A stretch of DNA of 40,111 bases, from positions 16,800-56,910 of the forward strand of contig CAYXCP010000001.1 in the NCBI GenBank assembly GCA_964463455.1. Reading direction: 5' to 3'. The stretch comes from an uncultured Gammaproteobacteria bacterium (lineage in GTDB: Bacteria; Patescibacteriota; Microgenomatia; UBA1406; GWC2-37-13). Position 1 is the first letter of the stretch; each line of letters starts with the position of its first letter. Below are positions 1 through 32,517 of this stretch, in pieces. The position numbers were made by a program, and so were the translations under genes. The notes under the pieces were generated by a model. The model ran no database searches and had not been told where the DNA came from. It worked only from the letters and a program-made list of their open reading frames with translations.

Positions 1-90
1 GCGGGGCGATGGTCGCACGCTCCAGGCGAGCGCACGCGGGGCGATGGTCGCACGCTCCAGGCGAGCGCACGCGGGGCGATGGTCGCACGC
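1..90 (+). repeat. Tandem direct repeat, 35-bp unit x2.6 (GCGGGGCGATGGTCGCACGC + TCCAGGCGAGCGCAC), truncated by the window edge
   Basis: Units 1-35 and 36-70 are identical. Positions 71-90 repeat the first 20 nt. No unique spacers, so this is not a CRISPR array. Confidence 0.95.
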
Positions 91-148
91 GTACACGAAA
101 AAGGGCGGCGGATATTGCACCCGCAGCCCCTAAGAAGTAACGCACCCT

Positions 149-355
149 TTAGGCGTCCTTTATCCCCCTCATAATTTCCAATAGCCTCATTTTCTCTCTG
201 TCCATCCGCCCCGCTACGCTCCAGGGGGAAGAAGTATTCACTAATGGGAGTGGGGCGATTGACACGGGAAGGGAGACGGGGGATGCGTCCCCTTGCATTT
301 CGGAAAGTATGGCGAGCGTACCCGCGTTGCTGGCGTTTATTTCTGGCGTATTCAT
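149..355 (-). CDS. hypothetical protein (68 aa)
   Basis: ATG start, TAA stop, fits between neighbours without overlap. No recognisable motif. Confidence 0.4.
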   Translation of the reverse strand: MNTPEINASNAGTLAILSEMQGDASPVSLPVSIAPLPLVNTSSPWSVAGRMDREKMRLLEIMRGIKDA

Positions 356-374
356 ATTTCAGGGAAGTGAATGA

Positions 375-623
375 TTAGCAATATCCGATTTTTTCTAGTT
401 GGTAGGGATGAAACCGCCGCAACTGACGCACGGCGGCATCATGCAATTTAATGGCTTTATAAGAAGGTGTCCGCAAGCCATCAGAATAAAGTTCAACGTA
501 TCTTTTAATTATGCCGACAAGTTTTTGAGCGTGTTGGCGAGAATTTATTGCGTCTCCGAGGGTGTATAATTTCCAAAAAACGGGGCGGACATAGTGACGA
601 CGCGGAAAAGAGAATTTATTCAT
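375..623 (-). CDS. hypothetical basic protein (82 aa)
   Basis: ATG start, TAA stop. Composition is closer to the AT-rich phage body than to the flanking GC-rich DNA. Transcribed divergently from the AAA+ gene. Confidence 0.55.
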   Translation of the reverse strand: MNKFSFPRRHYVRPVFWKLYTLGDAINSRQHAQKLVGIIKRYVELYSDGLRTPSYKAIKLHDAAVRQLRRFHPYQLEKIGYC

Positions 624-908
624 GATATTTTAATGTTGTTGGTTATGGGGCGAAAGAAGAAGTAATGCACCCGCCGCCCCTTGTCAATCTCCAGGGGTGA
701 AATTGTAGGAAAGTATTTGCCGGGCACTTGGCACGGTTTCCGCTCCACTGGGGACGCGTACGCGTATTTGACAAAGAAGAAGTAACGCACGCGAAAAAAA
801 ATCATTTTCCGCCGTTGACAAGAAGTTTTCCGGGGCGGAGTATAGGCGCGCCACGGGGCGCGATGGTCGCACCCCTGGCCCTTTCCACCAAAAACCAAAA
901 AACACGTT
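624..908. promoter_or_regulatory. Divergent intergenic control region with repeat boxes
   Basis: Two copies of AAAGAAGAAGTAAYGCAC (653-670, 773-790; 120 bp apart). Perfect 12-bp palindrome ACGCGTACGCGT (754-765). TTGACA at 815-820. Box-A variant GGGGCGCGATGGTCGCAC at 855-872. A-rich, SD-less leader before ATG 909. Confidence 0.5.
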
Positions 909-1970
909 ATGTCTAAATTCAAAATTGAAACCGTAGGGCAAAAAACCGCCACTGGACTTCTCAACACGTACGGCCAGCGAGTACTGGACACGGGACACGC
1001 GGGGAAACCGCGGTTGATTCTCGGCCCGGCGGGCGTTGGTAAATCGCACATTACAGAAGCGTTTGTAACGGAACTTGAAACGCAACTAAACGCGCAAGGG
1101 CGGGATTGCACCGTTCTGCGCGTTGAATCCGCTTCGGAATTCTCCCGCGCTGACGCACCCGCAAGCCTGGAACTCAAGGAAGCGTTGAAAAATTCTTGCC
1201 TGGGGATTTTCTCCATTATTTTTGTGGATGAGGCGCACAGCTTACCCCTTGCGCCTTTCGCCCCGTCCCCCTCGCCTATGCAACGCGTATTCAATACCCT
1301 GCTGTATGGTTCCGGCCAGGGCTGGGAGCGTTCCGGGCACGTTGAATTCAAAGGGGAAGCGGTTTCCTTTGACTCCCGGAATCTCTGCTTTGTTTTCCTC
1401 ACGAATCACCCGGAAAAAATGGGCGGGGGACGGAATTCCGACGCTATCCGCCGCCGTATGCAAGAAGTAACGCTTGAACTGTACACGGCAAAGGAAATGA
1501 ATCAGGTACTCCCCGCGTACTTCGAGAAAAAAGGGCGGATGGTCGCACCTGACGCAATGAAGGAGATTAGTAAATTCCACCGGGGTACGCTTGCGGCGGT
1601 TGACCATATCTTAGAACTCCTTCCCGCGTTTGGCGAAATTACCCTGGCTGACGTGCAAGAAGTCTTGCCCGTGTCAAAGTATAAACTGCGCGGTTTCCTC
1701 GCCCTGGAACTCCAGGCGATGAAATGGCTAAGGGAAACCACGGAACCAAAGAAACGGCAAAACCTGGCCTTGCGTTTTAAGGGCCTGGACATTTCGGAAA
1801 TGTACCGCCACGCAATTTCCCAGTGCACCCCCAGCAAGGCGGGGTTGATTGCGTCCCCCTTTATGACCATTAACAATAGTCAAGAGTACTTGATTATTGA
1901 TGATATTTGGGATGTTTGGGTGCGCAAGAATTCCGCCGCCCTGGCGCACGTATTCGACAAGAACGTTTAA
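909..1970 (+). CDS. AAA+ ATPase (RuvB/Cdc6/clamp-loader-like); putative replication initiator or loader
   Basis: Walker A GPAGVGKSH, Walker B IIFVDEAH, sensor-1-like FVFLTN, Arg-rich AIRRRM box, sensor-2-like HRGT. The C-terminal ~100 aa could be a winged helix. The specific role is inference. Confidence 0.85.
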   Translation: MSKFKIETVGQKTATGLLNTYGQRVLDTGHAGKPRLILGPAGVGKSHITEAFVTELETQLNAQGRDCTVLRVESASEFSRADAPASLELKEALKNSCLGIFSIIFVDEAHSLPLAPFAPSPSPMQRVFNTLLYGSGQGWERSGHVEFKGEAVSFDSRNLCFVFLTNHPEKMGGGRNSDAIRRRMQEVTLELYTAKEMNQVLPAYFEKKGRMVAPDAMKEISKFHRGTLAAVDHILELLPAFGEITLADVQEVLPVSKYKLRGFLALELQAMKWLRETTEPKKRQNLALRFKGLDISEMYRHAISQCTPSKAGLIASPFMTINNSQEYLIIDDIWDVWVRKNSAALAHVFDKNV

Positions 1971-1989
1971 CCTTTAACCTTCCTTTATA

Positions 1990-2583
1990 ATGAATCCTAC
2001 TGCACAAATTACGCTCCATTTCGTACCCGCCTCCCTGGCGGAATTCCGGGAGGCGGTTTCAATCCTACGGGGGGCGAATATCGCACCCGCCGCCGTTACG
2101 GTCGCACCCCCCGCCGCCGCCCCTATGAGCGCACCCGCCGCCCTTCCCGTGCGTCAGGCGAGCGCACCCGCCCCGCTACCGGTCGCACCCGCCCCGCGTC
2201 AGGCGAGCGCACCCCCCGCCGCCTCACGCACGGCAAAGAAGAAACACCCCCTAGAACTCCATTTTAATTTCCTATACCGGAAGAAATTCACGGTTTCCGA
2301 TGCGGATTGCCTGGCGGTTGATTACACGGGGGACAAGGGAGCGGTTGACCGGGAAACGCGCCTTTCCATGATTGCAACGCGCCTTGTCAACGGCGGGGTT
2401 GACAGGGACGGGGCGGAAGTAGCGGGAATGCCGGAAGAACAAGTACAGGCGATGATTGACAACGCGGGGGACGCGTCAGGCTATGCGGATGGGGACGGGG
2501 ACGCGGGCGGGGTTGACCCTGACGCACCCGCACCCCCGGAAAGTATCGCACGCATGGGGGACTTTGACCCGGAAGAAGTCTAA
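1990..2583 (+). CDS. hypothetical protein with Pro/Ala-rich linker and acidic C-terminus (197 aa)
   Basis: ATG start, TAA stop. The linker (…VAPPAAAPMSAPAALPVRQASAPAPLPVAPAPRQASAPPAA…) is encoded by the repeat boxes. The C-terminal half is Asp/Gly-rich. Confidence 0.6.
   Translation: MNPTAQITLHFVPASLAEFREAVSILRGANIAPAAVTVAPPAAAPMSAPAALPVRQASAPAPLPVAPAPRQASAPPAASRTAKKKHPLELHFNFLYRKKFTVSDADCLAVDYTGDKGAVDRETRLSMIATRLVNGGVDRDGAEVAGMPEEQVQAMIDNAGDASGYADGDGDAGGVDPDAPAPPESIARMGDFDPEEV
2071..2214 (+). repeat. Array of GCACCC-terminated boxes inside ORF 1990..2583
   Basis: GCACCC starts at 2083, 2104, 2131, 2164, 2185 and 2209 (spacings 21-33 bp). Exact 19-nt direct repeat GCGTCAGGCGAGCGCACCC at 2151-2169 and 2196-2214. 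Confidence 0.9.
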
Positions 2584-2613
2584 ACGGGGGACGGGAAAGA
2601 AGAAGTAACGGCT

Positions 2614-2639
2614 GGGGCGTACTCGAAAGGGTACGCCCC
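2614..2639 (+). terminator. GC-rich hairpin downstream of ORF 1990..2583 (possible terminator without U-tract)
   Basis: GGGGCGTAC (2614-2622) pairs perfectly with GTACGCCCC (2631-2639) across an 8-nt loop. Only TT follows, so termination activity is uncertain. Confidence 0.4.
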
Positions 2640-2655
2640 TTGCACGTACGGGGCG

Positions 2656-2696
2656 CAAGGCGAGCGCACCACGCACGCGGGGCGATGGTCGCACGC
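2656..2696 (+). repeat. Distal copy of the window-start repeat boxes (box B variant + exact 20-mer box A)
   Basis: CAAGGCGAGCGCAC at 2656-2669. GCGGGGCGATGGTCGCACGC at 2677-2696 is identical to positions 1-20. Confidence 0.9.
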
Positions 2697-2815
2697 ATAG
2701 GGGGGCGGAAAGAAGAAGTAACGCACGCGTCAGGGTGCGACAAAGGGACGCACAAAAGGGGACGCATGGAAGAAGAAGAAACCGCGCCAAACTGGCGCAC
2801 CACGGGCGCGAGCGG

Positions 2816-2873
2816 GTGCGTCATAATGGCACTCTCATAAGTGATAAAACGGGCGGGGGTGTGTCATAATGGC
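2816..2873 (+). repeat. Pair of 15-bp direct repeats GTG(C/T)GTCATAATGGC
   Basis: Copies at 2816-2830 and 2859-2873, differing at one base. Each contains a CATAAT -10-like hexamer. Confidence 0.8.
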
Positions 2874-3100
2874 GCAGGCCCCCTGGCATTAATGAAAAAG
2901 TAAACCGTGACAATTTGGCACACCTAGGGGGGTGGCACCCACCCACCTCAAAACTGAAAATCCCCTATCTCAGAGTGATTTGTAGTAACTCTACGAGTTC
3001 CTACCTTTGCTGGCGCTTACTCGTATAACCTTATCCCTTCATTGGATTTCCCCCGGAAAGCCAATGCCCCCCATTAATCGAAAGGAAAGTCAATATCCTG

Positions 3101-3144
3101 AAAACAAAAAGGCCCGCCCGAAAAAATCCGGGGGGCTTATTTTT
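3101..3144. terminator. Bidirectional rho-independent terminator
   Basis: GCCCGCCCG (3112-3120) pairs with CGGGGGGC (3129-3136), giving 8 GC pairs with one bulged G. A-run 3101-3111 (T-run on the - strand) and TTATTTTT at 3137-3144. Sits just after the stop of the leftward operon. Confidence 0.65.
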
Positions 3145-3149
3145 GCACA

Positions 3150-3602
3150 TTATGGAGTGATTTGCGGGGCACAGCTTTCACACTGACACCCTTTCGACAC
3201 ATATTGATAAGGCCCACCATACAGAAGGCCATAGGACGAATACCATTGCAAGGTATATCCCAACTTATTCAGTTCCTCCACCTCGGGGAGTTTCTCCACT
3301 ACTTCTTTTAGTTCAGCAACTCTCTTCGCATTAGCCTCTGCCTGCCCATACCTGATTTCAAGGCTTTTCGCAAGCGCGGCTACTTCATCATCCCACGTAT
3401 CTTTATCAGGAACGTTTTGCCAACTAATCCAGCCCGAATAGAGATTGTATCCTGAGTGCGGGTATCTGTAGTCCCAGTCAATCGTGTGGTTGATGTTTGA
3501 GATATATACCTCGTGGCCGTTCTTCGCCAGCCCCGCCTTCTCGATTGCCTCCGTCACGAACGTAACGAGCATCGCCTTTAGTTTATCTAGTTCTTCTTTC
3601 AT
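3150..3602 (-). CDS. hypothetical protein (150 aa)
   Basis: The track ORF begins at TTG 3614. ATG at 3602 forms an ATGA overlap with the upstream stop, so it is preferred. TAA stop. Confidence 0.7.
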   Translation of the reverse strand: MKEELDKLKAMLVTFVTEAIEKAGLAKNGHEVYISNINHTIDWDYRYPHSGYNLYSGWISWQNVPDKDTWDDEVAALAKSLEIRYGQAEANAKRVAELKEVVEKLPEVEELNKLGYTLQWYSSYGLLYGGPYQYVSKGCQCESCAPQITP

Positions 3603-7491: not shown

Positions 7492-8286
7492 TTATCCTAT
7501 GTAATTTGCTACTCCTTGCACTACTTTCTTCTTATCCATTGCGTATAAACCAGCACTACTGAAACTAGTTAATTCGAGCAACCAACAGTTCCCGTCATTG
7601 TCCTGCGCTATATCTATGCAGAAAATTCCATCAGGAAAGTATCCGATTTTTAGTATTTCCTCGCATAGTTTAGTAGCTTGCGGAGAAGCCGATGGGACTT
7701 TAGTTAATAAACCATTGAATCTGTAAGATGATACGGCCAAGATTTGTTGCCTATCTGTAACTAGAAATCTGAATTCGGCTTTAATGTTCTTAGGAGAACT
7801 TACGATTACCAACTCATTCTGTAGATGCTTGAATTCGTCGAAAAATGATTCCGTATCTTGCATATCGAGCAGCCCTGCCTTAAATGGCTTATCGCCACTG
7901 TCGGGTCTTACAAAGACTTGAGCCTCTTTGCCAAAGATACCATAGAAGAAATATAGCCTTCTTTTAAGTTCTGTCAAGGGGATAATTACATAATCGTCGT
8001 TGAATAAAAACTCCCCGAAGTATGGGTAGAACTTTGTGCAAAGGTAGTTATCGAAGTTACTATACGTAACAGGGGCACACCCCTGTTTACGTAGTTGGTC
8101 TCCGACCAACTTATTCATTTCGATGCACCCCATAAAGAGAACCTTGTCGTCATTTTGGTAATGAGCAATATCCGCTTTCTTATAGTCTCCCTTAATGTCA
8201 TGCACAGGAAAACCCAAGTCTTTAGCAGCTTGCGAAAGCTCTAAATAACTAGGCTCCTTGACTAGGTTCTCAATTATCCACTTCAT
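7492..8286 (-). CDS. ATP-grasp fold protein (R2K/DUF4343-like)
   Basis: VFVRPDSGDKPFKAG, EFRFLV, and CIDIAQDNDGNCWLLELTSFSSAGLY resemble the ATP-grasp core and C-terminal motifs. The substrate is unknown. Confidence 0.65.
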   Translation of the reverse strand: MKWIIENLVKEPSYLELSQAAKDLGFPVHDIKGDYKKADIAHYQNDDKVLFMGCIEMNKLVGDQLRKQGCAPVTYSNFDNYLCTKFYPYFGEFLFNDDYVIIPLTELKRRLYFFYGIFGKEAQVFVRPDSGDKPFKAGLLDMQDTESFFDEFKHLQNELVIVSSPKNIKAEFRFLVTDRQQILAVSSYRFNGLLTKVPSASPQATKLCEEILKIGYFPDGIFCIDIAQDNDGNCWLLELTSFSSAGLYAMDKKKVVQGVANYIG

Positions 8287-9459: not shown

Positions 9460-10011
9460 TTAACATGACTCTCCGTATTTTTTGATAATTTTCACAGCTT
9501 CGATCATATTTCCTGTAAAAAAGCCGTGGGAATGGCTTTCTGAGTTAAATCTGTGTCCAAAAGAGTGAAGGGCGTTGAAAACATACTGTCGGGCGGCATT
9601 TTCTTTGAATTTTCCCACGAATGAAGGCCAAGAACCAATTCTTTTTCTGAATAGGAAGTATAGGATGACATAAGATAGGGGCGAATCGAAGCAATCAGTC
9701 CATTCAGGGAGTCCTGTATGCTTCCAACGTGGCAAATAAAACTCAGAATGCGAATTTGTCAAGAACTTTTTGAAAAATTTGTCGTAAATTGTGTTCAAAG
9801 GGCCAAAATTGGCACTTGGAGACATTAAATCGGGCACTTCCTTAGGTTTTTGGGCTGCAAAACCATGTGGAGACATACTTCCGAACGCCCCATCCTTTTT
9901 GAAGTGGATACTTTTGTCAACTTTATCAATTTCCCAACCATTTGCGAGCATTTGACGTATCGAGTCAAGTGTTGTGGGATATTTGGCAATGAAATCTAAG
10001 ACTTCTTTCAT
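9460..10011 (-). CDS. hypothetical protein (183 aa); first gene of the leftward operon
   Basis: ATG start, TAA stop. Confidence 0.75.
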   Translation of the reverse strand: MKEVLDFIAKYPTTLDSIRQMLANGWEIDKVDKSIHFKKDGAFGSMSPHGFAAQKPKEVPDLMSPSANFGPLNTIYDKFFKKFLTNSHSEFYLPRWKHTGLPEWTDCFDSPLSYVILYFLFRKRIGSWPSFVGKFKENAARQYVFNALHSFGHRFNSESHSHGFFTGNMIEAVKIIKKYGESC

Positions 10012-10090
10012 ATTTAACTCTTTGCAAGAATCGTGCCTTGCTGCTTAATAATAAACTTTTGTGAAAAAAACTTTCTCGGACTTGTAAACA

Positions 10091-10097
10091 GTGTAAA
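10091..10097 (+). promoter_or_regulatory. GTGTAA box (GTGTAAA), 7 nt upstream of ATG 10105
   Basis: Member of a recurrent motif family. See the GTGTAA-box finding. Confidence 0.35.
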
Positions 10098-10104
10098 TAT
10101 AGGT

Positions 10105-10512
10105 ATGCAACGATTACTAAATGCCCTTGCTGTTCTCTTCGGGGAAAAGGTTGCTGTTAATAAGAGAACGTTGACAGAAATATACAAACTAATACCTGAT
10201 ATGACACAAGAAACTAAAGATAAGCTAAACGCGGTGAAAGCATACCTTGCTTCACTTCCTGATAAGTTCAAAGCTCTAAAAGATCAAATTGATGCACTTA
10301 AGAGCAATGATGACGCCGATCATGCTAAGATTGATGATCTAACTGCACAGGTAGATGCGCTGAAAGGCGAGCATGATGAAATCGTTTCTGTTGCTGATGA
10401 ACTGGACGCTGCTGCGAAAGCTGCTGACGCCGCAGACGGTGACGAAACTCCTGCTGAACCCACTCCGCCTGCGGAAGGGGAAGGTGCTGTAGTAACAGAA
10501 GGTAATCCCTAA
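10105..10512 (+). CDS. acidic coiled-coil protein; start uncertain
   Basis: The track start 10033 is GTG, only 21 nt from the divergent gene. ATG 10105 is preceded by a GTGTAAA box; ATG 10201 is also possible. Heptad-like K/D/A-rich sequence, TAA stop, followed by a terminator. Confidence 0.65.
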   Translation: MQRLLNALAVLFGEKVAVNKRTLTEIYKLIPDMTQETKDKLNAVKAYLASLPDKFKALKDQIDALKSNDDADHAKIDDLTAQVDALKGEHDEIVSVADELDAAAKAADAADGDETPAEPTPPAEGEGAVVTEGNP

Positions 10513-11075: not shown

Positions 11076-11770
11076 TGAAGAAATTTCTTATCTTACTTTT
11101 TGTCATCTTGGGTCTAAGCACTGCTACTGCCCAAGGGCCGGTTACAGGCGGACCTCTTAAAATTGGGTCTGGCTCCAGCACCATCGCGGGAACCCTACAG
11201 GTTACTGGTGGTATCACAGGAACCCCATACGACACGCAAACATCAGGGAATGTTTTCAAATTCATTGACGAATATGAACTCATTAACCCTCACCAAGTTG
11301 ACGGGACTGGTGCCGTAGTGGACACTCTTAGCACTTCTCCGAGCTATGGTCAAGCAATTTTTGCTGCCAATACGGACGAAGCCACAAACTATGTTCTGTA
11401 TCGTTTCCGTGTTCCATTTGACTTAGATACAAACGTTGACCTACAGGCTTGCTTTAGTTTTAGGCTTGGCGCGGCGGACACTGGAACGCATACTTACAAA
11501 ATTAGTATGGCAGATGTAGCCGATAGCGCAAGCGCAGACTCCCCTTCATTTTCCAATACAATTACATGGAGCTTTGGCGGTGATGCGAGTGGCGCGAGTG
11601 GTGATACCGAAACTGTTGGGTACACAACTTTAACAAGCTGGAAATCTAGTCTTACTCCTGGACATATCATTGTCATTAAACTAGCGCGTGATGGTGATGC
11701 GGCTGGGGATTCTAGTTCACAAGCATCTTCAACACAATCATTATCACTAAAATATGGGCGTTCTCAATAA
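11075..11770 (+). CDS. secreted protein with signal peptide (231 aa)
   Basis: The track start 11060 is TTG. ATG 11075 overlaps the upstream stop (TAATG) and gives MKKFLILLFVILGLSTATAQG, a classic Sec signal. Confidence 0.7.
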   Translation: MKKFLILLFVILGLSTATAQGPVTGGPLKIGSGSSTIAGTLQVTGGITGTPYDTQTSGNVFKFIDEYELINPHQVDGTGAVVDTLSTSPSYGQAIFAANTDEATNYVLYRFRVPFDLDTNVDLQACFSFRLGAADTGTHTYKISMADVADSASADSPSFSNTITWSFGGDASGASGDTETVGYTTLTSWKSSLTPGHIIVIKLARDGDAAGDSSSQASSTQSLSLKYGRSQ

Positions 11771-15483: not shown

Positions 15484-16083
15484 GATGTCAGGAGCGTCAG
15501 CGGGAATGTTTAAAGTTTCCAAACACTCTTGAAGCATATTTCTTAGTTCGCTTGGACGAATGTTGCGATTTGGATGACTTGAGCGTTCCACGCTCTTTTC
15601 CCAAGTTACGTTGTAGTTATGCGTTGGGCAACTGAACGTTCCATGATCGGGATAAATAATTACAGAGAAGAGTTCGTTTGCAAAGATATTGCAGCAGTCT
15701 GCTTCATTGAATGTCCATTTATTGTGGCAACTCATTTTGACAAACAGGTCTCCAAGGTTATCCACAGTGTTTTGGACTGGTTTAGAAACAACTTTAAGTA
15801 GCTGCGCTTGCGCTCTAAGGCAAACTAAGCTTTCTGCCAATGGAAGAAAGGCTCCCTTGTCTGATGTTTTAAGCGTGACTTCTCTAAACAGTCCTTCGCT
15901 ATCATAGTCTGAGCATTTCTGAGACCAAATGTTAAGTGGAACTCCTTTTACGGTCCACGTTTTCCCTGTCAGCAAGTCAGATGAAACTCCGTTTACGGAA
16001 ACTCCATCAGCAGTAAGAGTAATCTCGGGATTGTATAGATTAACTTCTTCTTGCTCCGTTCTTAGTTTGATATATGAATTCAT
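15454..16083 (-). CDS. hypothetical protein (209 aa)
   Basis: The track start 16152 is GTG. ATG 16083 lies 2 nt after the upstream stop. The 3' end overlaps the convergent fibre gene by 30 nt. Confidence 0.65.
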   Translation of the reverse strand: MNSYIKLRTEQEEVNLYNPEITLTADGVSVNGVSSDLLTGKTWTVKGVPLNIWSQKCSDYDSEGLFREVTLKTSDKGAFLPLAESLVCLRAQAQLLKVVSKPVQNTVDNLGDLFVKMSCHNKWTFNEADCCNIFANELFSVIIYPDHGTFSCPTHNYNVTWEKSVERSSHPNRNIRPSELRNMLQECLETLNIPADAPDILRFKEDSAS

Positions 16084-16085
16084 AG

Positions 16086-16295
16086 TTATTCTTCTTCTGT
16101 GTCGTAGAACACAATATCCTCCCATTGTTCTTCGGTGGAAACTCTCGACCACTTAGTCCTACGGAATTCTGCAAACTCGTCTCTACAGTATTCACAATCT
16201 GTAGTTTCGCAGCTTATTCCTGCGCAGTGATCGCATTCTATATACGGACGACTGCATTCGTGGCACCATTTAAGGTCGTAGTTATACCATTTCAT
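16086..16295 (-). CDS. Cys-rich small protein (69 aa), probable Zn-binding
   Basis: CHEC…CDHC…C…C..C pattern followed by an acidic tail. Confidence 0.65.
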   Translation of the reverse strand: MKWYNYDLKWCHECSRPYIECDHCAGISCETTDCEYCRDEFAEFRRTKWSRVSTEEQWEDIVFYDTEEE

Positions 16296-17014
16296 ATGGG
16301 AACGATTTCTATTTTGCCGTTTTCATCAATTGTGGCGTAATGCCATAGACTAGTGTCTATACACAGGTTTTCTGAATCTGTGTATATTTTTTTCCTTACC
16401 GTCTCGTCTCTGGAATGTCCTACGATTTGATTATATCCTTCAATAGGTGTGAATTCATCCCAATCCAACCACACAGGCCCACCGTATAAATAAGCCCCTC
16501 CACGACTTAGCCCCGCATGAAAAATCCAATGCGGAGTATCTTGTTCGCTGTGGATAAGATTTAAGGCTTCCGCTTCACTTTCTTTAAGGAAGTCAATAAG
16601 AAGACCTTTTTCTAAAACGGTCTTGGGAACATAATGTGGATGCACGCCCGCGTGCGAGAAAAGGAACTTCTTGCCAGCTACTTCACGATATGCGAAGAAC
16701 TTTAGGTATTCCTTAACTAGGGGGCTGTAAGTATATCCTATTGCATTTAACCCCGCCTGCTTACCTTTGTTCCATCCACCGCAACGAGAAGCAGGGCGGA
16801 GGTAACTAAGGTCATGATTCCCCATTAAGCAGGTAATGTAGGGCTCGTAGCATATAGACATCCACCATTCGGCGGTGTCTTGATTTTCTTTAATAGTGTC
16901 GAAGTAATCATCAAAGGTATCCCCTAGAAGGATAATGTCTTCGCCTTCATATCGCTTAATTATACTGTCAGCCTTTCTCCATTGTGTGTGGATGTCGGGA
17001 ATTACTACGATCAT
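16292..17014 (-). CDS. calcineurin-like metallophosphoesterase (lambda PPase/ApaH-like)
   Basis: Motifs in canonical order: VIPDIH, LLGDTFDD, GNHD, FSHAGV, VGHS. Confidence 0.85.
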   Translation of the reverse strand: MIVVIPDIHTQWRKADSIIKRYEGEDIILLGDTFDDYFDTIKENQDTAEWWMSICYEPYITCLMGNHDLSYLRPASRCGGWNKGKQAGLNAIGYTYSPLVKEYLKFFAYREVAGKKFLFSHAGVHPHYVPKTVLEKGLLIDFLKESEAEALNLIHSEQDTPHWIFHAGLSRGGAYLYGGPVWLDWDEFTPIEGYNQIVGHSRDETVRKKIYTDSENLCIDTSLWHYATIDENGKIEIVPI

Positions 17015-17913
17015 TACAGAGGGATGTCTATATTATGCTTGCCTTTAACAAAGTTATCGTTGTACCAAGTGAAATAGCCCTTCATGTCATCATTACCGTG
17101 TTGGTAAGCTTGCTTGAAGATTTCTTTGATTTGGTTGAGGTTAAGAGGTAAGCTAATATGTTTTTGAATAATTGGAAGGTGATGGTCGCGGAGCGCAAAG
17201 CAATCCATGACCCCAAAAGGGAATGGTGTAAACGAATTTACAGGAACAAAACTATTTGTCAAGCCGAAAATATGGTATCCTTGGTCTTCTAATTTACGAA
17301 TAAGATCGTTTGGAGTATAGTTGAACCACTTCAAGGTGAATCCATTAACTTCAAATACGATTGGGGGATGGCAGCGGTCAATAGTTTCCTGCAAGCCATC
17401 TAAAACGTTTAGCTCCCATCCTTCTACGTCGAGCTTGATAAAGTCAATACGCTCGTCCACTAAAAGATCGTCCAATTTACGGGCAGGGACGGGGATATTG
17501 TATTCATTGCCGCCTTCTTGGAGAACGTGGCTACTTGGGCCATTAAGGCAGAAGTTTACTTCCCCATCTTTATCGGAGGCCGCATAATTAAGGCAGACCT
17601 GGTTCTTGAAGTTATTGGCCTGTTGGTTCTGAACTAGAATTTCGTAGTTTGATGGAGACGGTTCGACAGAGAACACCTGTCCTTTAGTAAAGGAAGCAGC
17701 TAAGGCCGAAAAGGTGCCGATATGTGTGCCGACATCTAAAATGTTTGAATATCGGTTCCAGAAAAGGGACGATACTTTAGCCAATTCAGCCGACCAAACA
17801 TGGCCCTGGGCCAATGTCTGAGAGACGGGTTCTTGAGATTCGGGGTCAAAATAGAGAACGAGTTCTTTTGTATGTGCGTTCTCTAGGGGGTTTTGAAAGG
17901 TATTGCTTGTCAT
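17014..17913 (-). CDS. SAM-dependent methyltransferase, FkbM-like
   Basis: Motif I-like ILDVGTHIGTFS. IDFIKLDVEGWE is typical of the FkbM family. Confidence 0.75.
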   Translation of the reverse strand: MTSNTFQNPLENAHTKELVLYFDPESQEPVSQTLAQGHVWSAELAKVSSLFWNRYSNILDVGTHIGTFSALAASFTKGQVFSVEPSPSNYEILVQNQQANNFKNQVCLNYAASDKDGEVNFCLNGPSSHVLQEGGNEYNIPVPARKLDDLLVDERIDFIKLDVEGWELNVLDGLQETIDRCHPPIVFEVNGFTLKWFNYTPNDLIRKLEDQGYHIFGLTNSFVPVNSFTPFPFGVMDCFALRDHHLPIIQKHISLPLNLNQIKEIFKQAYQHGNDDMKGYFTWYNDNFVKGKHNIDIPL

Positions 17914-18165
17914 TTACTTGTAGATTGAAACTTTGGCTCCAAACGGAACCCCGCGCCAAATCGGCGTCAGGCCGCGAAATACTTCGACAGTTCCCTCGTT
18001 ATCTACGACTCGGGAACTTAGGTAGCCTCTCCCACAAACTTGAACTCGGGGATTTCGGCCTTTTTTATGAACTGAGGCCGGAATTGTGTAAACACAGGTC
18101 TCTGCGTCCCACATATCGTGTTCTATTTCGATCTCGAACGGTTTTTGGCGTAAAAATTTAAACAT
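17914..18165 (-). CDS. hypothetical protein (83 aa); first gene of the leftward five-gene operon
   Basis: ATG start. The TAA stop abuts the next start. Confidence 0.6.
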   Translation of the reverse strand: MFKFLRQKPFEIEIEHDMWDAETCVYTIPASVHKKGRNPRVQVCGRGYLSSRVVDNEGTVEVFRGLTPIWRGVPFGAKVSIYK

Positions 18166-18167
18166 AG

Positions 18168-18174
18168 GTGTAAT
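18168..18174 (+). promoter_or_regulatory. GTGTAA box (GTGTAAT), 9 nt upstream of ATG 18184
   Basis: Lies inside an 18-bp divergent intergenic spacer. Confidence 0.35.
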
Positions 18175-18183
18175 AATTAGAAT

Positions 18184-18564
18184 ATGAAAGCTTCTCTGTC
18201 CGACGTAATGATAAAAGCAGAGACCGTATCGGCCACAGTAAGCGGCTGTTTAGCGGTTTATCTGTTTGCGAAGGAGCCATCTAGTATATTATACATATTT
18301 GCAACTTCGGTCATCGGTCTTTTGTTAAGTTTGTATTTTAGAAAGGTATCTATTATTGATTTCTGTAAACTGGCGGTTATGTGCGTCGGGGCATCAATTT
18401 TTTCAGGTATGCTTTGCTGGAAACATGCTCCACATTTTGCGTGTTGGTTATCCTTTTTAATTTCCTTTTTACTAAATACAGGTTTAAATATTAGATATAG
18501 TAATTCTGAAAAATATAGCGAGCCTGTTCTAAATCCTTCTGATGTTCTTCCTAGACTCCATTGA
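18184..18564 (+). CDS. polytopic membrane protein (126 aa, ~4 TM)
   Basis: Four hydrophobic segments. No other motif. Confidence 0.65.
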   Translation: MKASLSDVMIKAETVSATVSGCLAVYLFAKEPSSILYIFATSVIGLLLSLYFRKVSIIDFCKLAVMCVGASIFSGMLCWKHAPHFACWLSFLISFLLNTGLNIRYSNSEKYSEPVLNPSDVLPRLH

Positions 18565-24023: not shown

Positions 24024-24400
24024 TGAATAAAACTTACTGTTCTGAATGTGGGCACAAAATGATCTATGAGGTCGCCAAGCCCAAGTATTGTTCGGAATGC
24101 ACTCATCCTTTAGGAGGTGCTCCAACGGTAGCTCGTCAGAAACCTCGCCCTGTTGTTGTAAATAATGATGATGACGACGATGATGACGATGACTATTATG
24201 ATGACGAACCACAAATTCCTAGACTATCCAATATTCGACTGAATGTGGATATTACTAATCCAAGGGATAACGCGGCTATTGTTGGACACGCAGTAGCAAG
24301 TAACGTGGGTGTTAATCATGACCGCCAAGACGGCAGACGTAAACACAGTTCCAAGGCTCTGCGTAAAAGAGTAAAGAGCGAGGAACCAATTGATCTATAA
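24023..24400 (+). CDS. Zn-ribbon protein with poly-Asp tract (125 aa)
   Basis: CSEC-x13-CSEC followed by a run of nine Asp (NNDDDDDDDDDYYDDE). Confidence 0.7.
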   Translation: MNKTYCSECGHKMIYEVAKPKYCSECTHPLGGAPTVARQKPRPVVVNNDDDDDDDDDYYDDEPQIPRLSNIRLNVDITNPRDNAAIVGHAVASNVGVNHDRQDGRRKHSSKALRKRVKSEEPIDL

Positions 24401-27152: not shown

Positions 27153-28997
27153 ATGGCTTGGATTGCTGGACATCACCATCCTCAAAAGGATAAGGCTCCG
27201 CTCGCGGAGGAACTGTATAAGGTTAAAGGGAAGCTAGATGACGATGAAGCGCGTAAGTGGTTCGTGAAGTTCTGTATGGCAAACCTGTCCTTTGCTACCA
27301 ACATCCTTATTGGTGTAAAACTAGCGCCTATTCAAGAAATCAAGCTGCGTAGCTTCTTTTTACGTAACTTTATTCTTGATATTGAAGGTCGTGGTAGCGG
27401 TAAGAGCTTTGTTGTAGCTGTGTTTATTGTGCTATACGCCCTGTTTAATCCTGGCGTAAGAATTGGCATTTGTTCTGCTACTTTCCGTCAAAGCAAGATG
27501 CTTTTCAGAACTATTGAGAAGTTCAGCAAGGATGAAAAGGGCAAACTATTCAAACAGTGTATTGTAGGAGACCCGATTCACTCAGCCGACTTGTATGAAA
27601 TGCAGATCGGAAGATCGGTTGTCGTGGCTGTACCTCTCACAGAAAAGATTCGTGGTCTTCGTTTCAACGTGGTTGTTTTGGACGAGTTAATGCTCATTCC
27701 TAATGACATCATTGACAACGTTATCATTCCGTTCTTGTCTGCAAGTCAGGATGGTATGGAAAACAAGGAAATTTTCGATGCAGAAACTAAGTTGATTGCC
27801 GCTGGTCGTTTAACGGAAGCGCAAAGAACTAAGTTCCCATCAAATAAAGTAATAGGAATGTCTTCTGCGAGCTTTAAGTTTGAGCCTCTATATAAGGACT
27901 ACTACGAGAAGTACATGGACAAGATACTTGATGAAAAGGAAACGGGGGTGAACCACGCTCTTATCAAGTTCTCTTATGAAATTGCTCCCCCTGGTTTGAT
28001 GAACATGGAAATCATTGAGGACGCTCGTTCCAGAAACTCTAAAGCTACATTTGATCGAGAATATCGCGCTATCTTCACAGATGACGCCTCAGGATTCTTT
28101 AGTGTTGAAAGTATTAACAGGGCCAGTCTTAGAGGGAATGACCCTACATGTATTCGCTTGAAAGGCTTGCCCGACAAAAAATACATTCTGTCCATAGACC
28201 CGAACTACAATCAGTCAGATACTTCTGACCACTTCGCTATGGCAGTGTTCGAGATAAATGAGGAAAACGAATCTGTGGCCCTTGTGCATTCGTATGCCTT
28301 AGCCAATAGTAAGTTGGGGAAACGTAGTTTGTACTTCAAATACATCCTAGAGAGTTTCAACATTGTCTATATTATTGCGGATAATGCGGGTGGTCCTGAG
28401 TTTATCTCTGACGTAGAACAGTTCTTAGGAAAGCTGCCTCAGCCTATTATTCGCTTTGAAGACACCTTCCTTGATGGCGAAGAAGGTATTAGAGAAGCCC
28501 GCAAGGCTTACAACCCAAATATAGGTAAGATGTTCCATTCTCAAATTTTCGGTCAAAAGGGGTGGTACCTTACAGCAAATATGGCGCTGCAAGCGGACCT
28601 TGAACATGGTAAGATGCTTTTCGCTGCTCCTATCTTCAACGAGGCTACTCGCTTGAAAATGCTGAAAGAGGATGTTCCTATTCATGAATTGGAGTTCGCG
28701 CCACAATATGATAAGATGGTGCCTCAGGAAAAGATGCACGAATTCATAGATCACCAAAACTATCTACTTGACCTTACTAAGAAGGAATTAACGTTGATTG
28801 AAGTGAAGGCTAACGCTACGGGGCACCATAGTTTTGACCTACCTAAGAATCTCAAGATTACAGATGACGTAAACAGGGCTCGTAAGGACTCTTATACTAC
28901 TCTTCTCCTTGGGTGTTGGGCTGCGAGATGCTATTTCGAGATGAAGAAGATGCCTGAGAAGCGTAAGTCTAGTTTTAAGCCCTGCTTTGTGGCTTAA
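27153..28997 (+). CDS. terL: terminase large subunit
   Basis: Walker A GRGSGKS and Walker B VVVLDELM. C-terminal RNaseH-like nuclease acidic motifs (SIDPN…, IIADNAGG). 614 aa, immediately upstream of the portal. Confidence 0.85.
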   Translation: MAWIAGHHHPQKDKAPLAEELYKVKGKLDDDEARKWFVKFCMANLSFATNILIGVKLAPIQEIKLRSFFLRNFILDIEGRGSGKSFVVAVFIVLYALFNPGVRIGICSATFRQSKMLFRTIEKFSKDEKGKLFKQCIVGDPIHSADLYEMQIGRSVVVAVPLTEKIRGLRFNVVVLDELMLIPNDIIDNVIIPFLSASQDGMENKEIFDAETKLIAAGRLTEAQRTKFPSNKVIGMSSASFKFEPLYKDYYEKYMDKILDEKETGVNHALIKFSYEIAPPGLMNMEIIEDARSRNSKATFDREYRAIFTDDASGFFSVESINRASLRGNDPTCIRLKGLPDKKYILSIDPNYNQSDTSDHFAMAVFEINEENESVALVHSYALANSKLGKRSLYFKYILESFNIVYIIADNAGGPEFISDVEQFLGKLPQPIIRFEDTFLDGEEGIREARKAYNPNIGKMFHSQIFGQKGWYLTANMALQADLEHGKMLFAAPIFNEATRLKMLKEDVPIHELEFAPQYDKMVPQEKMHEFIDHQNYLLDLTKKELTLIEVKANATGHHSFDLPKNLKITDDVNRARKDSYTTLLLGCWAARCYFEMKKMPEKRKSSFKPCFVA

Positions 28998-29060: not shown

Positions 29061-30965
29061 ATGAAACCGAAGCCTAAAGAACCTAAAACCAGGAACGACG
29101 GACATGAGCCAAGCATCTTTATGGCTGGTTATACGTCCAACGCTAGTTCGGCTAAACTGCCTTATACAACAAGTTTTGCTTCTCGAACATCTGTTCAGAA
29201 GAACAAGATTGATTCTAGTGGAATCAACGGAGAGCTTGAAAACATCAAGAAAGGTGTCTCTCCTATGCAGGCGGGACAGGAAGGAAGTATTTCCGTAGCT
29301 GATGTAATTGAGTTATGTCAAAAAGCATATTGGAACGTAGCGATTTTCCGTTCTACGATTGACATTCAAACTGAGTTTGCGAACTCTAAGCTATCCTTCC
29401 GTTCTCCAAATAAGACTGTAGAAAAGTTCTATACAGCTTGGTACGATAAAATCGGTGGCCCAATGCTTGCAGAACAAACATTCAGAGAATGGTTCCGTTC
29501 AGGAAACGTCTTCCTTCTTCGCTTTGATGGAGAGATCGAATACTCCGAATACCGTAAGATTACTCGTGCAGCAGATAAGTCCCTGATAAAGAAGGTAATT
29601 CCGCTACGATATATCTTACTAAACCCTAAAGACATTCGCTGTTGTGGAGCGTCGTCTTTCATTGATGCCGAATACGCAAAGGTGTTGAACGATTATGAAC
29701 TGAACCGTTATAAGTCTCCGAACCTTACTCCAGCAGAACAGGAGTTCCTTGATACGCTTCCTGCTGATGTTCGCAAAGCCATCAAGAACGGCCAACGCCC
29801 ATTGATTAAGTTGGATGCCGATAAACTGACGGCCCTATTCTGCTCTAAGCAGGATTATGAGGCGATGGCTGTGCCGATGTACTACCCTGTTCTATGCGAT
29901 ATTAACTTGAAGTTGGAATTTAAGAAAGCTGAACAAGTTATCGCCCGCACAGTGGACTACGCCGTATTGCTTGTTACCGCAGGTGACGAGGAAAGAGGTG
30001 ACATGGGCAATGAAGACATCCGCAAAGCTCTTGTGGAGCTTTTCGCTTCTGAAAGCGTTGGCCGTGTTCTTATTTCAGATTGGACCACAAAGGCTGACTT
30101 CATTATCCCCGATCTGAATAAGATTTTCGGGGCCGAGAAGTACAAGGTGGTTAATGAAGACATCGCAAACGGTCTTATGAACATCTTTTGGGGTGAAGAG
30201 AAGTTTGCAAACTCTATGGTTAAAATTCAAGTGTTTCTTGAAAGGTTGAATCAGGCTCGTGAGGCTTATATCAATCAATTCCTGAAACCAGAAATGAAAA
30301 GGATTGCGGAAACACTAGGGTTCAACACAATCCCTGAGGTAGAGTTCTCTACAATCAACCTTAAGGACGAGGTAGAATACATGAAAATCTACATTCGTTT
30401 GGCTGAGCTTGGATTACTGTCCCCTCAAGAATTGTTTACTGCTCTACAAGTTCAACAACTTCCTCTGAAAGAGGACTCTGTGATTTCTCAGAAAGAATTC
30501 AAGACACAAAAGGACAACGGTTTGTATGAGCCTCTTCTAAACAAGAAAGTTGACGAAGCTCCGGCAGGAAGACCTGCGGGAACCAAGGCTCCTAAGAAGC
30601 AAGGTTCTAAAGTTGGTCCTATTGGGACTGGCTCAAAGGCTTCATTCAGTGTTTCTAAAATCAAAGATACCGTGGAGCAACTAACCGTGTTATCTTTAGC
30701 CGTGGAAGAAATCTACAAACAGAAGAACCAAATCCAAAGATTAAGCAAGAAACATAAGGATATTTGTTGGCACGTAGCAGAATCTATTGCGATCAACGAA
30801 CCTATGGAACAATGGGCAGGACACATTTCCTCTTACATTGATAATCCTAAGATTCAAGGCGATCGTACAGACGATGCTATGTCTATTTCTGTGGCGCATT
30901 CTGTTTCACCGATAGTTGGAGCAATTCTTCTAAATGCCGTCACAAACGAAGACGAAAATGTGTAA
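29061..30965 (+). CDS. portal protein (by position and size)
   Basis: 634-aa ORF directly after TerL. No motif I can name, so this is a synteny-based call. Confidence 0.6.
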   Translation: MKPKPKEPKTRNDGHEPSIFMAGYTSNASSAKLPYTTSFASRTSVQKNKIDSSGINGELENIKKGVSPMQAGQEGSISVADVIELCQKAYWNVAIFRSTIDIQTEFANSKLSFRSPNKTVEKFYTAWYDKIGGPMLAEQTFREWFRSGNVFLLRFDGEIEYSEYRKITRAADKSLIKKVIPLRYILLNPKDIRCCGASSFIDAEYAKVLNDYELNRYKSPNLTPAEQEFLDTLPADVRKAIKNGQRPLIKLDADKLTALFCSKQDYEAMAVPMYYPVLCDINLKLEFKKAEQVIARTVDYAVLLVTAGDEERGDMGNEDIRKALVELFASESVGRVLISDWTTKADFIIPDLNKIFGAEKYKVVNEDIANGLMNIFWGEEKFANSMVKIQVFLERLNQAREAYINQFLKPEMKRIAETLGFNTIPEVEFSTINLKDEVEYMKIYIRLAELGLLSPQELFTALQVQQLPLKEDSVISQKEFKTQKDNGLYEPLLNKKVDEAPAGRPAGTKAPKKQGSKVGPIGTGSKASFSVSKIKDTVEQLTVLSLAVEEIYKQKNQIQRLSKKHKDICWHVAESIAINEPMEQWAGHISSYIDNPKIQGDRTDDAMSISVAHSVSPIVGAILLNAVTNEDENV

Positions 30966-31783: not shown

Positions 31784-32517
31784 TGAAACTAGGGGATAAA
31801 GGACCAGAAGTTAAGGAACTACAAGAAAAGCTTATTGCATTGGGTTATGACCTAAAGGCAGATGGCGATTTTGGTCCTAAAACATTAGCAGCAGTCAAGG
31901 CTTTCCAAAAGCAGCATGATCTTGAGGATGATGGTGTGGTTGGGAAACTGACGCTTAAAAAAATTCAGGAGCATACTGCTCCCAAGCCCGAACCGAAGCC
32001 AGAGCCAAAATCTGAGCCTAAACCAGAACCTAAACCAGAACCTGTTGATGGAGTTTTCGATGCTCGTACCGCTAAGAATTTAGCCACGCTAGATGCCAAG
32101 GCGGTGCCCGCATTCACAGCTTTTATTACAGAAGCTAAGAAGGTCGCGGCCAAACTAGGTTATGAGTATGTTGCTATTTCTGGAAACAGAACATGGGAGG
32201 AGCAAGATGCGCTATATGCTCAAGGTAGAAGTAAGCCAGGGCAAATTGTAACTAAAGCAAAAGGAGGACAATCGAATCATAATTTTAAGATAGCTTTGGA
32301 TTTTGGAGTTTTTAAAAACGGAAACTATATAGATGATGATCATCCAGTAGAGTCTGAAAAAGTTCATAGAGCAGTGGCGAAAGTAGCTCCGAAGTACGGG
32401 ATTGAATGGGGAGGTTTATGGCAAACGATAAAGGACTACCCACACTTTGAAATAGGTACTGGACTCTCTATGACAAGAAAAAGAGAACTATTTGCAAAAA
32501 ACGGCTCTGTTTTATAA
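31783..32517 (+). CDS. endolysin: PG_binding_1 domain, PEPK-repeat linker, peptidase M15 (VanY/L-Ala-D-Glu peptidase-like)
   Basis: GDKGPEVKELQEKLIALGY…DGDFGPKTLAAVKAFQ. Linker PKPEPKPEPKSEPKPEPKPEP. Catalytic-type SGNRTWEEQDALYAQGR…SNHNF…ALDF…WGGLW…DYPHFE. Confidence 0.85.
   Translation: MKLGDKGPEVKELQEKLIALGYDLKADGDFGPKTLAAVKAFQKQHDLEDDGVVGKLTLKKIQEHTAPKPEPKPEPKSEPKPEPKPEPVDGVFDARTAKNLATLDAKAVPAFTAFITEAKKVAAKLGYEYVAISGNRTWEEQDALYAQGRSKPGQIVTKAKGGQSNHNFKIALDFGVFKNGNYIDDDHPVESEKVHRAVAKVAPKYGIEWGGLWQTIKDYPHFEIGTGLSMTRKRELFAKNGSVL

Follow-up and report, generated by a model that had tools for sequence, protein, structure and literature searches.

Dense fields of iteron-like repeats next to genes for replication-type ATPases are an already known kind of locus. 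Iterons lie on both sides of, and inside, the initiator gene in P1 and F, in the lambda O gene and around the bipartite oriC of Bacillus subtilis; they are expected to be lineage-specific, and ring-shaped initiator-helicases that read pentamers exist as well, as exemplified by the large T antigen of SV40. For most uncultured phages, the replication origins and initiators are unknown. Here, we analyze a stretch of 40,111 nucleotides of phage DNA (contig CAYXCP010000001.1 of assembly GCA_964463455.1, positions 16,800 to 56,910), hereafter the window, the left end of which (1-2950) is, as far as comparative sequence analysis can tell, a self-contained two-gene phage cassette and a real unit. It encodes a RuvB-like AAA+ ATPase and a small partner protein and is packed with short direct repeats (“boxes”) that share a CGCAC core and a single orientation. 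The boxes are putative binding or loading sites of the cassette’s own proteins, and they most likely mark a replication origin served by the ring ATPase, a tentative reading to which we assign a probability of about 0.4. The two genes together with their field of sites represent a testable candidate. Apparently undescribed so far are the protein family, the polar boxes of several families built on a shared core, and the saturation of a cassette with a private motif. We found no description of phage RuvB-like cassettes in the literature; according to a review of jumbo phages, the RuvC of phages is not coupled to an ATPase of the RuvB-like type (PMC7824862).

Repeat boxes and genes of the cassette

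An earlier note on this DNA, made from the sequence alone, had described the left ~2.9 kb as richer in guanine and cytosine (GC) than the rest, and this difference is clear, with 52-62% in this part against about 42% elsewhere. By 1-kb intervals, the GC fraction amounts to 0.52, 0.53 and 0.62 in the first three and ranges from 0.38 to 0.47 across the other 37 kb. Inside the cassette, the distribution is patchy (43-48% at 301-700, 81% at 2101-2200).

The boxes, too, are where that note had placed them, namely, on the forward (+) strand and both in intergenic DNA and inside the two + strand open reading frames (ORFs), apart from corrections by one base (the Box B variant starts at 2657, not at 2656). 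The most regular part is a perfect tandem array at 1-90 (+), in which a 35-bp unit (17+18) is repeated 2.6 times, with Box A and Box B alternating and CGCAC recurring every 17-18 bp; this array may continue to the left of the window’s first position. The exact core of Box A, GGGGCGATGGTCGCAC, which lies within the 20-nt boxes delineated previously, is found at 3-18, 38-53, 73-88 and 2679-2694, with variants at 857-872 (one mismatch), 1533-1548 (two mismatches) and 2071-2086 (three mismatches), all on the + strand. With up to three mismatches allowed, Box A has 7 matches in the 40 kb, compared to 0.14 expected, all on the + strand and none outside the cassette. Box B (13 nt) is present in exact form at 23-35, 58-70, 2155-2167 and 2200-2212 and as a variant at 2657-2669 (5 matches against 0.42 expected), and Box C at 654-670, 774-790 and 2710-2726, with partial copies at 129-145, 2597-2613 and 1462-1473 (5 matches against 0.08 expected); both occur on the + strand only and are confined to the cassette. 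To these three families, a fourth can be added, TAATGCACCCGCCGCCCCT, which is found at 113, 663, 2079, 2127 and 2520.

The boxes are modular: different 5' arms (GGGGCGATGGT, CAGGCGAG, AAGAAGTAA) and 3' arms (GCG..., CCGCCGCCCC) meet at one CGCAC core, and exact copies of 13-25 bp are common to sites that are 2-2.6 kb apart. In particular, a cluster downstream of the genes (2653-2730, +) consists of the Box B variant, a Box A and a Box C and includes a 25-bp segment (2672-2696) that exactly repeats positions 66-90.

The strong strand polarity claimed previously is upheld by shuffle statistics. The cassette (1-2950) contains 30 CGCAC and 4 GTGCG (three of the latter within 1-2800 and the fourth at 2816), compared to a mean of 4.2 CGCAC in 2000 dinucleotide-preserving shuffles (standard deviation 2.0, maximum 13), whereas the remainder of the window contains 9 and 13, respectively. 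The density of direct repeats in the window peaks at the cassette as well (296 against a background of 6-76), and the boxes conform to the usual definition of iterons, that is, at least three clustered direct repeats of ~12-22 bp in one orientation. Searches of IMG/VR and the JGI metagenomes for Box A returned only single chance matches in unrelated GC-rich contigs. Explanations of the boxes at the RNA level were rejected: there were no matches in Rfam, and the predicted folding of the array RNA is no better than that of shuffled sequences (z = -1.4), with only a terminator-like hairpin standing out.

The first of the two genes (909-1970, +) encodes a RuvB-like AAA+ ATPase of 353 amino acids (aa), with Walker A and B motifs, sensor 1, an arginine finger, sensor 2, a pre-sensor-1 beta-hairpin and a C-terminal winged helix. 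In Pfam, this protein matches only the generic AAA model, and its best matches in PHROGs are clamp-loader families (E-values 2e-9 and 2e-6). A HMMER scan of 1.84 billion representative proteins identified 49 relatives, of which 14 had E-values below 1e-30 (about 40% identical). An AlphaFold2 model built from a 52-sequence alignment reached a predicted local distance difference test (pLDDT) score of 95.3, compared to only 36 for a single-sequence model. When this model was compared to the PDB with Foldseek, the top 41 matches were all RuvB, with alignments of 326-356 columns for the 353 residues, and RFC, clamp-loader and Lon entries ranked below them. All three domains of RuvB, that is, the AAA+ core, the lid and the C-terminal winged helix, are present in the model, a beta-hairpin (142-155) precedes the sensor-1 strand, and the hairpin region aligns to RuvB in phmmer searches. 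In a 17-sequence alignment, D107, E108, N166, R182, R183 and R225 are invariant, and G44 and K45 are nearly so. At the sequence level, the identity to RuvB is only 14-18%, the phmmer match to RuvB in the PDB is weak (E-value 0.14), and, at E < 1e-3, RuvB_N is matched by 11 of the 52 family members and RuvB_C by a single one. The structural model identifies the ATPase as a divergent RuvB-type ring motor; the initiator/loader-type AAA+ class to which it had been assigned in the earlier note is not supported by structure prediction.

Several other assignments were considered and rejected. A place in the DnaA/Orc1/Cdc6/DnaC/IstB clade is at odds with the presence of the beta-hairpin and with the lack of DnaA, Cdc6 or DnaC among the top 50 Foldseek matches; the similarity of the family to IstB or DnaC in Pfam and PHROGs is only faint. 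A sigma-54 enhancer-binding protein would be expected to show PF00158, the GAFTGA motif and NtrC or PspF among the top 50 structural matches, none of which was found. For a defence system, there is no PADLOC match to either protein of the window, and the relatives show only matches at the level of the P-loop.

The window is phage DNA, with genes for the large terminase (TerL; 27153-28997) and the portal protein (29061-30965). BLASTN searches with the cassette and 20 kb of the backbone against 50,697 phage records gave no match, and IMG/VR yielded no close relative. As judged from such searches, the ATPase family is small, unannotated and derived from uncultured phages, with no cultured member: nothing beyond P-loop-level similarity was detected in cultured phages, plasmids, BFVD, PHROGs or PADLOC, and a TBLASTN search with the ATPase against phages and 72,556 plasmids gave no match. 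For the distant family member P0030, TBLASTN retrieved only unannotated gut phage contigs. A word-indexed protein search with the ATPase returned the query alone, a profile search was dominated by Clp proteins, and scans of IMG/VR with the ATPase, its alignment and TerL found no relatives.

The ATPase had previously been considered the only recognizable gene of the cassette, a view that no longer holds because the next ORF (ORF197; 1990-2583, +) encodes a conserved partner. In this 197-aa protein, an Ala/Pro-rich linker connects an N-terminal I.LHF element to an acidic C-terminal tail. Neither RuvA nor any family in the PDB, Pfam or PHROGs is detectably similar to it, and no RuvA homologue was found. 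In eight aligned lineages, the partner is 106-197 aa long and combines an N-terminal I.L.F with a Pro/Ala-rich linker and an acidic C-terminal tail, which reads DDDDI/L in the relatives and DFDPEEV in the window. Acidic-tailed partners are also encoded in the distant lineages L075 and L076, but not in L077.

Both genes carry boxes. In the ATPase gene, these are the Box A variant at 1533-1548, which encodes a variable loop, and the partial Box C at 1462-1473; the excess of CGCAC is modest in this gene (5 observed against 1.5 under synonymous-codon shuffling, p about 0.009). In the partner gene, in-frame repeats at 2071-2232 (+), with units of 19-33 nt, contain 7 CGCAC and two exact copies of Box B and encode the Ala/Pro linker. 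The linker is about 45 aa longer in the window than in all seven homologues, and the Box B and Box A-like units are located exactly there. Together, the longer linker and the variable loop suggest that boxes have been written into protein-tolerant parts of the genes. Overall, the partner gene contains 10 CGCAC, against 2.4 under synonymous-codon shuffling, and 9 of the 10 are in one reading frame (GCA-CCC, Ala-Pro). The repeat part of ORF197 is an expanded coding repeat for the Ala/Pro linker, although it holds two exact 13-nt copies of Box B.

Equivalent cassettes in related phages

Loci of relatives were collected from ENA, Logan and NCBI assemblies, on contigs of up to 185 kb, and belong to ten lineages (L017, L018/L019, L020/L021/L023/L024, L022, L025, L026, L027, L075, L076 and L077). 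Each of the ten has a small partner gene after the ATPase gene. In most of these loci, a non-coding gap and a convergently transcribed block of genes are located 3' of the pair, and in most, the pair is richer in GC than its flanks, third codon positions included. In relatives, the cassette closes a long series of genes that are small and of early type. In L027 (3652-7451) and L076 (2228-6289), the ATPase-partner pair is preceded by a conserved block that consists of GATase_4, a protein of ~450 aa and another GATase_4.

Dense direct repeats are present in about half of the relatives, at places equivalent to those in the window and with a different sequence in every lineage. The direct-repeat density at the cassette is about 290 in L018 (against 25-60), 232 in L026 (against about 10) and 130-160 in L020 (against 15-70). 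The contig of L026 begins inside a GC-rich array of at least 8 copies of a 16-bp repeat, 620-740 bp 5' of the ATPase gene; downstream of the pair, it contains four copies of TGCAnnTTGCACGAC, and its TGGCAC motif is polar (7:0). At least 8 copies of CTGATTCATAAC are present in an AT-rich gap of 1.4 kb downstream in L018, and TTATGG-type tandem repeats along with an exact 55-bp repeat are found upstream in L020. The polarity of GCAC is not a family-wide property, being specific to the lineage of the window and, in part, L026.

The cassette of L077 (NCBI GCA_040384045.1, JAWVHH010000222.1) is saturated with a motif of its own. In these 2.7 kb (15500-18200), CTAACA/TGTTAG occurs 61 times, compared to three times in the other 18 kb, with 37 copies in one orientation and 24 in the other. 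About 20 copies of a 12-bp unit form an array 670-900 bp 5' of the ATPase gene, and each of four 68-bp units combines TTGACA with a TGTTAGG-N5-CCTAACA palindrome. The ATPase coding sequence itself contains 18 copies of the motif, distributed over several frames, where 1.4 would be expected from shuffling of synonymous codons. This private motif, synonymous coding sites included, offers a natural system for the study of protein-DNA co-evolution. The L077 ATPase belongs to the family according to hhalign (probability 98.9%), yet it is only about 23% identical to the ATPase of the window.

The same contig encodes an ATP-grasp enzyme whose gene is 69% identical to that at 7492-8286 (-) in the window. 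More than 120 homologues of this enzyme, which belongs to the R2K clade, are encoded on phage-like contigs of up to several hundred kb; their identities span 39-72%, and the gene is a useful backbone marker for finding relatives. The window (10033-10512, +) and L077 (14972-15319, -) also share a 159-aa protein with 53% identity. The gene of this protein adjoins the cassette in L077 but lies 7 kb away in the window, which indicates a mosaic backbone around the cassette.

One element recurs across lineages. In the window, L018, L020 and L077, which are independent lineages, the sequence AAKAAGTWAY, which resembles Box C, is found as a pair 120-600 bp 5' of the ATPase gene, and it is rare elsewhere in these four loci as well as in 63 unrelated control loci, which were not composition-matched. 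By this comparison, Box C is semi-conserved across the family, and Boxes A and B are private to the phage of the window. That the arrays of the relatives occupy the same positions with different sequences provides comparative support for their role as cis sites of the neighbouring proteins.

Contigs of 12-185 kb from L018, L020, L022, L025 and L077 contain the cassette in their interior. Contig ends cluster just 5' of the ATPase gene, and the contig of L021 starts exactly at the second copy of the 55-bp repeat that the L020 contig reads through. This junction indicates that the contig ends are assembly breaks at repeats and not evidence of physical termini; the repeat arrays explain the breaks at these loci. 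Many family members are found on contigs of only 1.3-3.5 kb, and in one 20-member cluster, none of the 15 members listed is on a contig above 7 kb. Such short contigs fit repeat-driven assembly breaks, or else unusual coverage or microdiversity at the cassette.

What the box field may do

The conserved gene pair, the arrays at equivalent positions, the private motifs that change along with the proteins, and the pressure of the motifs on coding DNA, seen in two lineages or more, jointly support a cis-trans unit. This unit comprises the genes for a divergent hexameric AAA+ motor of the RuvB type, which has a C-terminal winged helix, and for a small protein that resembles an adaptor in its flexible linker and acidic tail. 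Both are embedded in a one-directional field of boxes, with an array upstream, a cluster downstream and copies in the tolerant parts of both genes. Under the reading that we favour, the boxes would act as cognate binding or loading sites for the cassette proteins, and the ring ATPase, assembled on DNA at the boxes, would initiate replication. If this is the case, a sequence-addressed ring of the RuvB type would represent a novel means of initiating replication or moving DNA.

A number of observations weigh against an origin. There is no DnaA box (TTATCCACA) within one mismatch in the non-coding part of the cassette, the single site with one mismatch falling within the ATPase gene (1223, minus strand). 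Origins are usually AT-rich, whereas the cassette is GC-rich, and its only AT-rich stretch consists of 60 bp with 28% GC (604-665); this patch, which is around the 1st-5th percentile of GC in the window, lies directly 5' of a Box C and is the only candidate, a weak one, for an unwinding element. The ATPase comes from no known initiator family (Rep, O, DnaA), and the partner has no family match. RuvB is not sequence-specific, and we know of no precedent for RuvB as a sequence-specific initiator. Furthermore, the gene junction at which the cassette is located is convergent, whereas origins often have a divergent layout. The in-frame Ala-Pro coding repeat accounts for part of the CGCAC excess, and the enrichment of motifs in coding sequences is strong only in L077 and in the partner gene of the window. 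Finally, arrays are absent in about half of the family, with no peak of repeat density in L025 and L027 and no conspicuous arrays found in L075 and L076 in a separate repeat search.

The cassette might also represent a new phage system, in which private, partly polar motifs direct a RuvB-type motor acting on double-stranded DNA (dsDNA) to the locus that encodes it, a proposal that we consider doubtful. The motifs would be read by the winged helix or by the acidic-tailed partner, and the motor would be a sequence-guided translocase or an initiator-helicase. It could be used for origin melting without a classical initiator, for directional pulling of the genome, or for gene conversion of the cassette between co-infecting phages, and the motif and the protein would diversify together, and rapidly, while the backbone stays conserved.

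A field of autoregulatory operators, bound by the partner or by the winged helix of the ATPase, and of repeated promoters, which would control the expression of the cassette or of transcripts that start in it and run outwards, without any role in replication, is an unlikely explanation, but one that accounts for several features. Box C and a Box A variant adjoin TTGACA and -10-like hexamers 5' of the ATPase gene, the 68-bp units of L077 with TTGACA and a palindrome are typical of operators, Box C-like elements are kept 120-600 bp upstream in four lineages, and a -24/-12-like element is present in both the window and L026. Operators, however, do not normally saturate coding sequences as the motif does in L077, where 18 copies compare to 1.4 expected. 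Arrays of 8-20 copies 0.6-0.9 kb upstream and clusters past a terminator hairpin are atypical for operators as well, and promoter-like matches are not enriched (4 observed in 1-3600 against 2.5 in shuffles).

It seems quite unlikely that the boxes are polar sites for loading or orienting a dsDNA translocase, in the manner of FtsK on KOPS (FtsK orienting polar sequences), for genome entry, for branch migration and cassette gene conversion, or for the clearing of proteins from DNA. In this scenario, the winged helix or the partner would place the ring on the boxes in a single orientation, from which it would pump DNA. Such a role would agree with the fold of RuvB, a dsDNA pump, and its C-terminal winged helix, with the extreme polarity (30:4 for CGCAC, 7:0 for TGGCAC in L026), with the spread of sites throughout the unit, coding DNA included, and with the position of the cassette at the end of the early-type gene run in relatives. 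It would also agree with the divergence of the cassette, which far exceeds that of the backbone (between the window and L077, ~23% identity for the ATPase and 69% for the ATP-grasp). The motifs are local and not genome-wide, though, with 9 CGCAC and 13 GTGCG in the rest of the window, the motif of L077 is present in either orientation (37 and 24 copies), and a sequence-guided RuvB is without known precedent.

That the boxes are largely non-functional products of repeat instability is improbable in our estimation. Minisatellite-type slippage and local gene conversion would make the CGCAC excess a by-product of the Ala/Pro-coding repeat and of array expansion, as the perfection of the 35-bp array, the in-frame linker repeats of varying length (19-33 nt) and the lack of arrays in about half of the relatives would suggest. 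Instability does not readily explain, however, why exact copies of 13-25 bp are shared by sites 2-2.6 kb apart, why the three box families have a single 3' core and a single orientation in common, why independent lineages have different motifs at the same positions, or why the motif of L077 is enriched in several frames beyond codon usage.

A partition-type cassette, in which an NTPase, a small adaptor and centromere-like arrays would position or segregate phage DNA, has a slim chance. The arrays that flank an NTPase gene followed by a small gene resemble parC-parMR, sopABC and tubC-tubRZ, but no known partition system employs an AAA+ ring, the ATPase is RuvB-like rather than a Walker-type ParA, an actin or a tubulin, and nothing points to a plasmid-prophage lifestyle, with no homologue on the 72,556 plasmids. 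Even slimmer is the chance of a packaging signal or a physical genome end (pac/cos, terminal repeat). The window and the contig of L026 each start inside their own array, but the cassette is internal in the five relatives named above, the contig breaks are explained by repeats, as in L021 versus L020, and the distance to TerL is 24 kb, with no gene for a small terminase next to the cassette; the packaging array offered as an alternative in the earlier note finds no support in these data. Lastly, despite the abrupt step in GC near 2950, an assembly chimera of a GC-rich fragment and a phage is highly unlikely, given that homologous GC-rich cassettes with the same convergent block recur in lower-GC contigs of most of the independently assembled relatives and that the cassette genes share the phage’s absence of Shine-Dalgarno sequences. 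Overall, what stands of the earlier interpretation is that the boxes are real, non-random and polar and that the module is a genuine unit; its leading hypothesis of an iteron-type replication origin is still plausible, whereas the class of the ATPase and the packaging alternative do not stand.

Remaining features and known systems

At 113-146 (+), upstream of the ATPase gene, a member of the fourth box family (TATTGCACCCGCAGCCCCT) is combined with a partial Box C (AAGAAGTAACGCAC). This composite is followed by two unverified small ORFs on the minus strand, 149-355 (68 aa) and 375-623 (82 aa), for which no homologues were found beside the cassette in the relatives, the upstream small ORFs not being conserved. 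At 653-681 (+), a Box C (AAAGAAGAAGTAATGCAC) is fused to a member of the fourth family, and at 768-790 (+), TTGACA is followed by another Box C (AAAGAAGAAGTAACGCAC). A promoter-like TTGACA...GAGTATAGG with the Box A variant of 857-872 occupies 815-872 (+), just 5' of the ATPase gene. The sequence TGGCACGGTTTCCGCT at 729-744 (+) has the -24/-12 spacing typical of sigma-54 promoters (GG-N10-GC), at a count that is not above chance. At the same position in the window and at 370-385 in L026, TGGCACGG-N4-CGCT is found 5' of the ATPase gene; the two ATPases are only 27% identical. An A/C-rich leader (CCAAAAACCAAAAAAC) directly precedes start codons in the window (886-904), L017 (51-76) and L022 (about 9928-9948). 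No Shine-Dalgarno sequence was detected before any of the 18 genes of the window that were inspected, those of the cassette included, which hints at a host with translation initiation that does not depend on this element.

Just 3' of the partner gene, there is a GC-rich, terminator-like hairpin (GGGGCGTAC...GTACGCCCC; 2614-2640, +), with analogous hairpins in L018 and L026. Further downstream, at 2807-2873 (+), two copies of GTG(C/T)GTCATAATGGC are present. The non-coding sequence GCGTCAT(A/G)ATGGCAC, which overlaps a -10-like CATAAT, occurs at 2815-2832 and 2858-2873 in the window and at 2407-2423 in L026, at nearly equal distances past the partner stop codon (232 and 237 bp). Another element 3' of the cassette, T(T/A)ATGAAA, is found in the window (2886-2900), L026 (2482-2493), L020 (11846-11862 and 12113-12129) and L018 (about 11665-11680), and can be read as a mini-ORF of 3-4 codons (MKK*, MKKC*, MKS*) in the window, L018 and L026. 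A hairpin with flanking runs of A and T (3105-3145), at the convergence with the minus-strand gene block, forms the right boundary of the unit.

Elsewhere in the window, there is a second rise in GC (0.47) at 35601-37589, where two copies of GGGGGCGCG (36450-36468) lie in an ORF of 662 aa, the GC of which is very high at second codon positions (0.65). In-frame coding repeats are also found at 24165-24207 (Asp-rich, GATGAC-type) and at 31990-32043 (4.5 copies of the 12-nt GAACCTAAACCA). A search of the window for tRNA genes found none.

Among described systems, RuvB, the motor of branch migration at Holliday junctions, and its partner RuvA are closest to the two proteins. The ATPase shares with RuvB the three-domain architecture, the pre-sensor-1 beta-hairpin, Walker A and B, sensor 1, the arginine finger and sensor 2, and its gene is paired with one for a small protein with a flexible linker, as is the case for RuvA. 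The differences are the low identity of 14-18%, a partner that is unrelated to RuvA by sequence, and the cassette’s own repeated DNA motifs, of which RuvAB makes no use. Clamp loaders (T4 gp44/gp62, RFC, DnaX/HolB) provide the best PHROG matches, and the order of an AAA+ gene and then a small gene is that of gp44-gp62. Unlike in clamp loaders, however, the C-terminal domain is a winged helix with beta-strands instead of a helical collar, and the pre-sensor-1 hairpin is present; in Foldseek, clamp loaders rank below RuvB, and in some of the matches (2chg), the alignment is limited to domains 1-2. Among the 23 ORFs of the window that were scanned, no gene for a clamp or a polymerase was recognized. 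With FtsK/SpoIIIE and their KOPS/SRS (SpoIIIE recognition sequences), the cassette has in common a hexameric dsDNA pump with a winged-helix module and strongly polar short motifs. In contrast to the cassette motor, FtsK has a RecA fold, and KOPS are distributed genome-wide and skewed towards dif, whereas the motifs described here are confined to 2.9 kb, and those of L077 occur in both orientations.

In the arrangement of its sites, the cassette resembles the iteron replicons (P1 incC-repA-incA, F ori2, the lambda origin in gene O, oriC), where lineage-specific repeats in one orientation flank a gene and also lie inside a linker-coding part of a gene. It differs from them in lacking a RepA-type winged-helix dimer, a lambda O or a DnaA protein, as well as DnaA boxes and a clear AT-rich unwinding element, in the GC-richness of the locus, and in the presence of several box families that share a 5-nt core. 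The SV40 large T antigen with its GAGGC pentamers and papillomavirus E1/E2 likewise combine a ring ATPase that has a beta-hairpin, a separate module for DNA recognition and clustered sites of pentamer scale, although these ATPases belong to the superfamily 3 (SF3) clade and not to the RuvB-like one, and no origin-binding domain is recognizable in the cassette. By analogy with papillomavirus E2, the partner might be a small adaptor that recruits the motor, as the structural model and the features of the partner suggest. As working analogues, the SV40 large T antigen, papillomavirus E1/E2 and the bipartite clusters of sites that flank dnaA or P1 repA come nearest.

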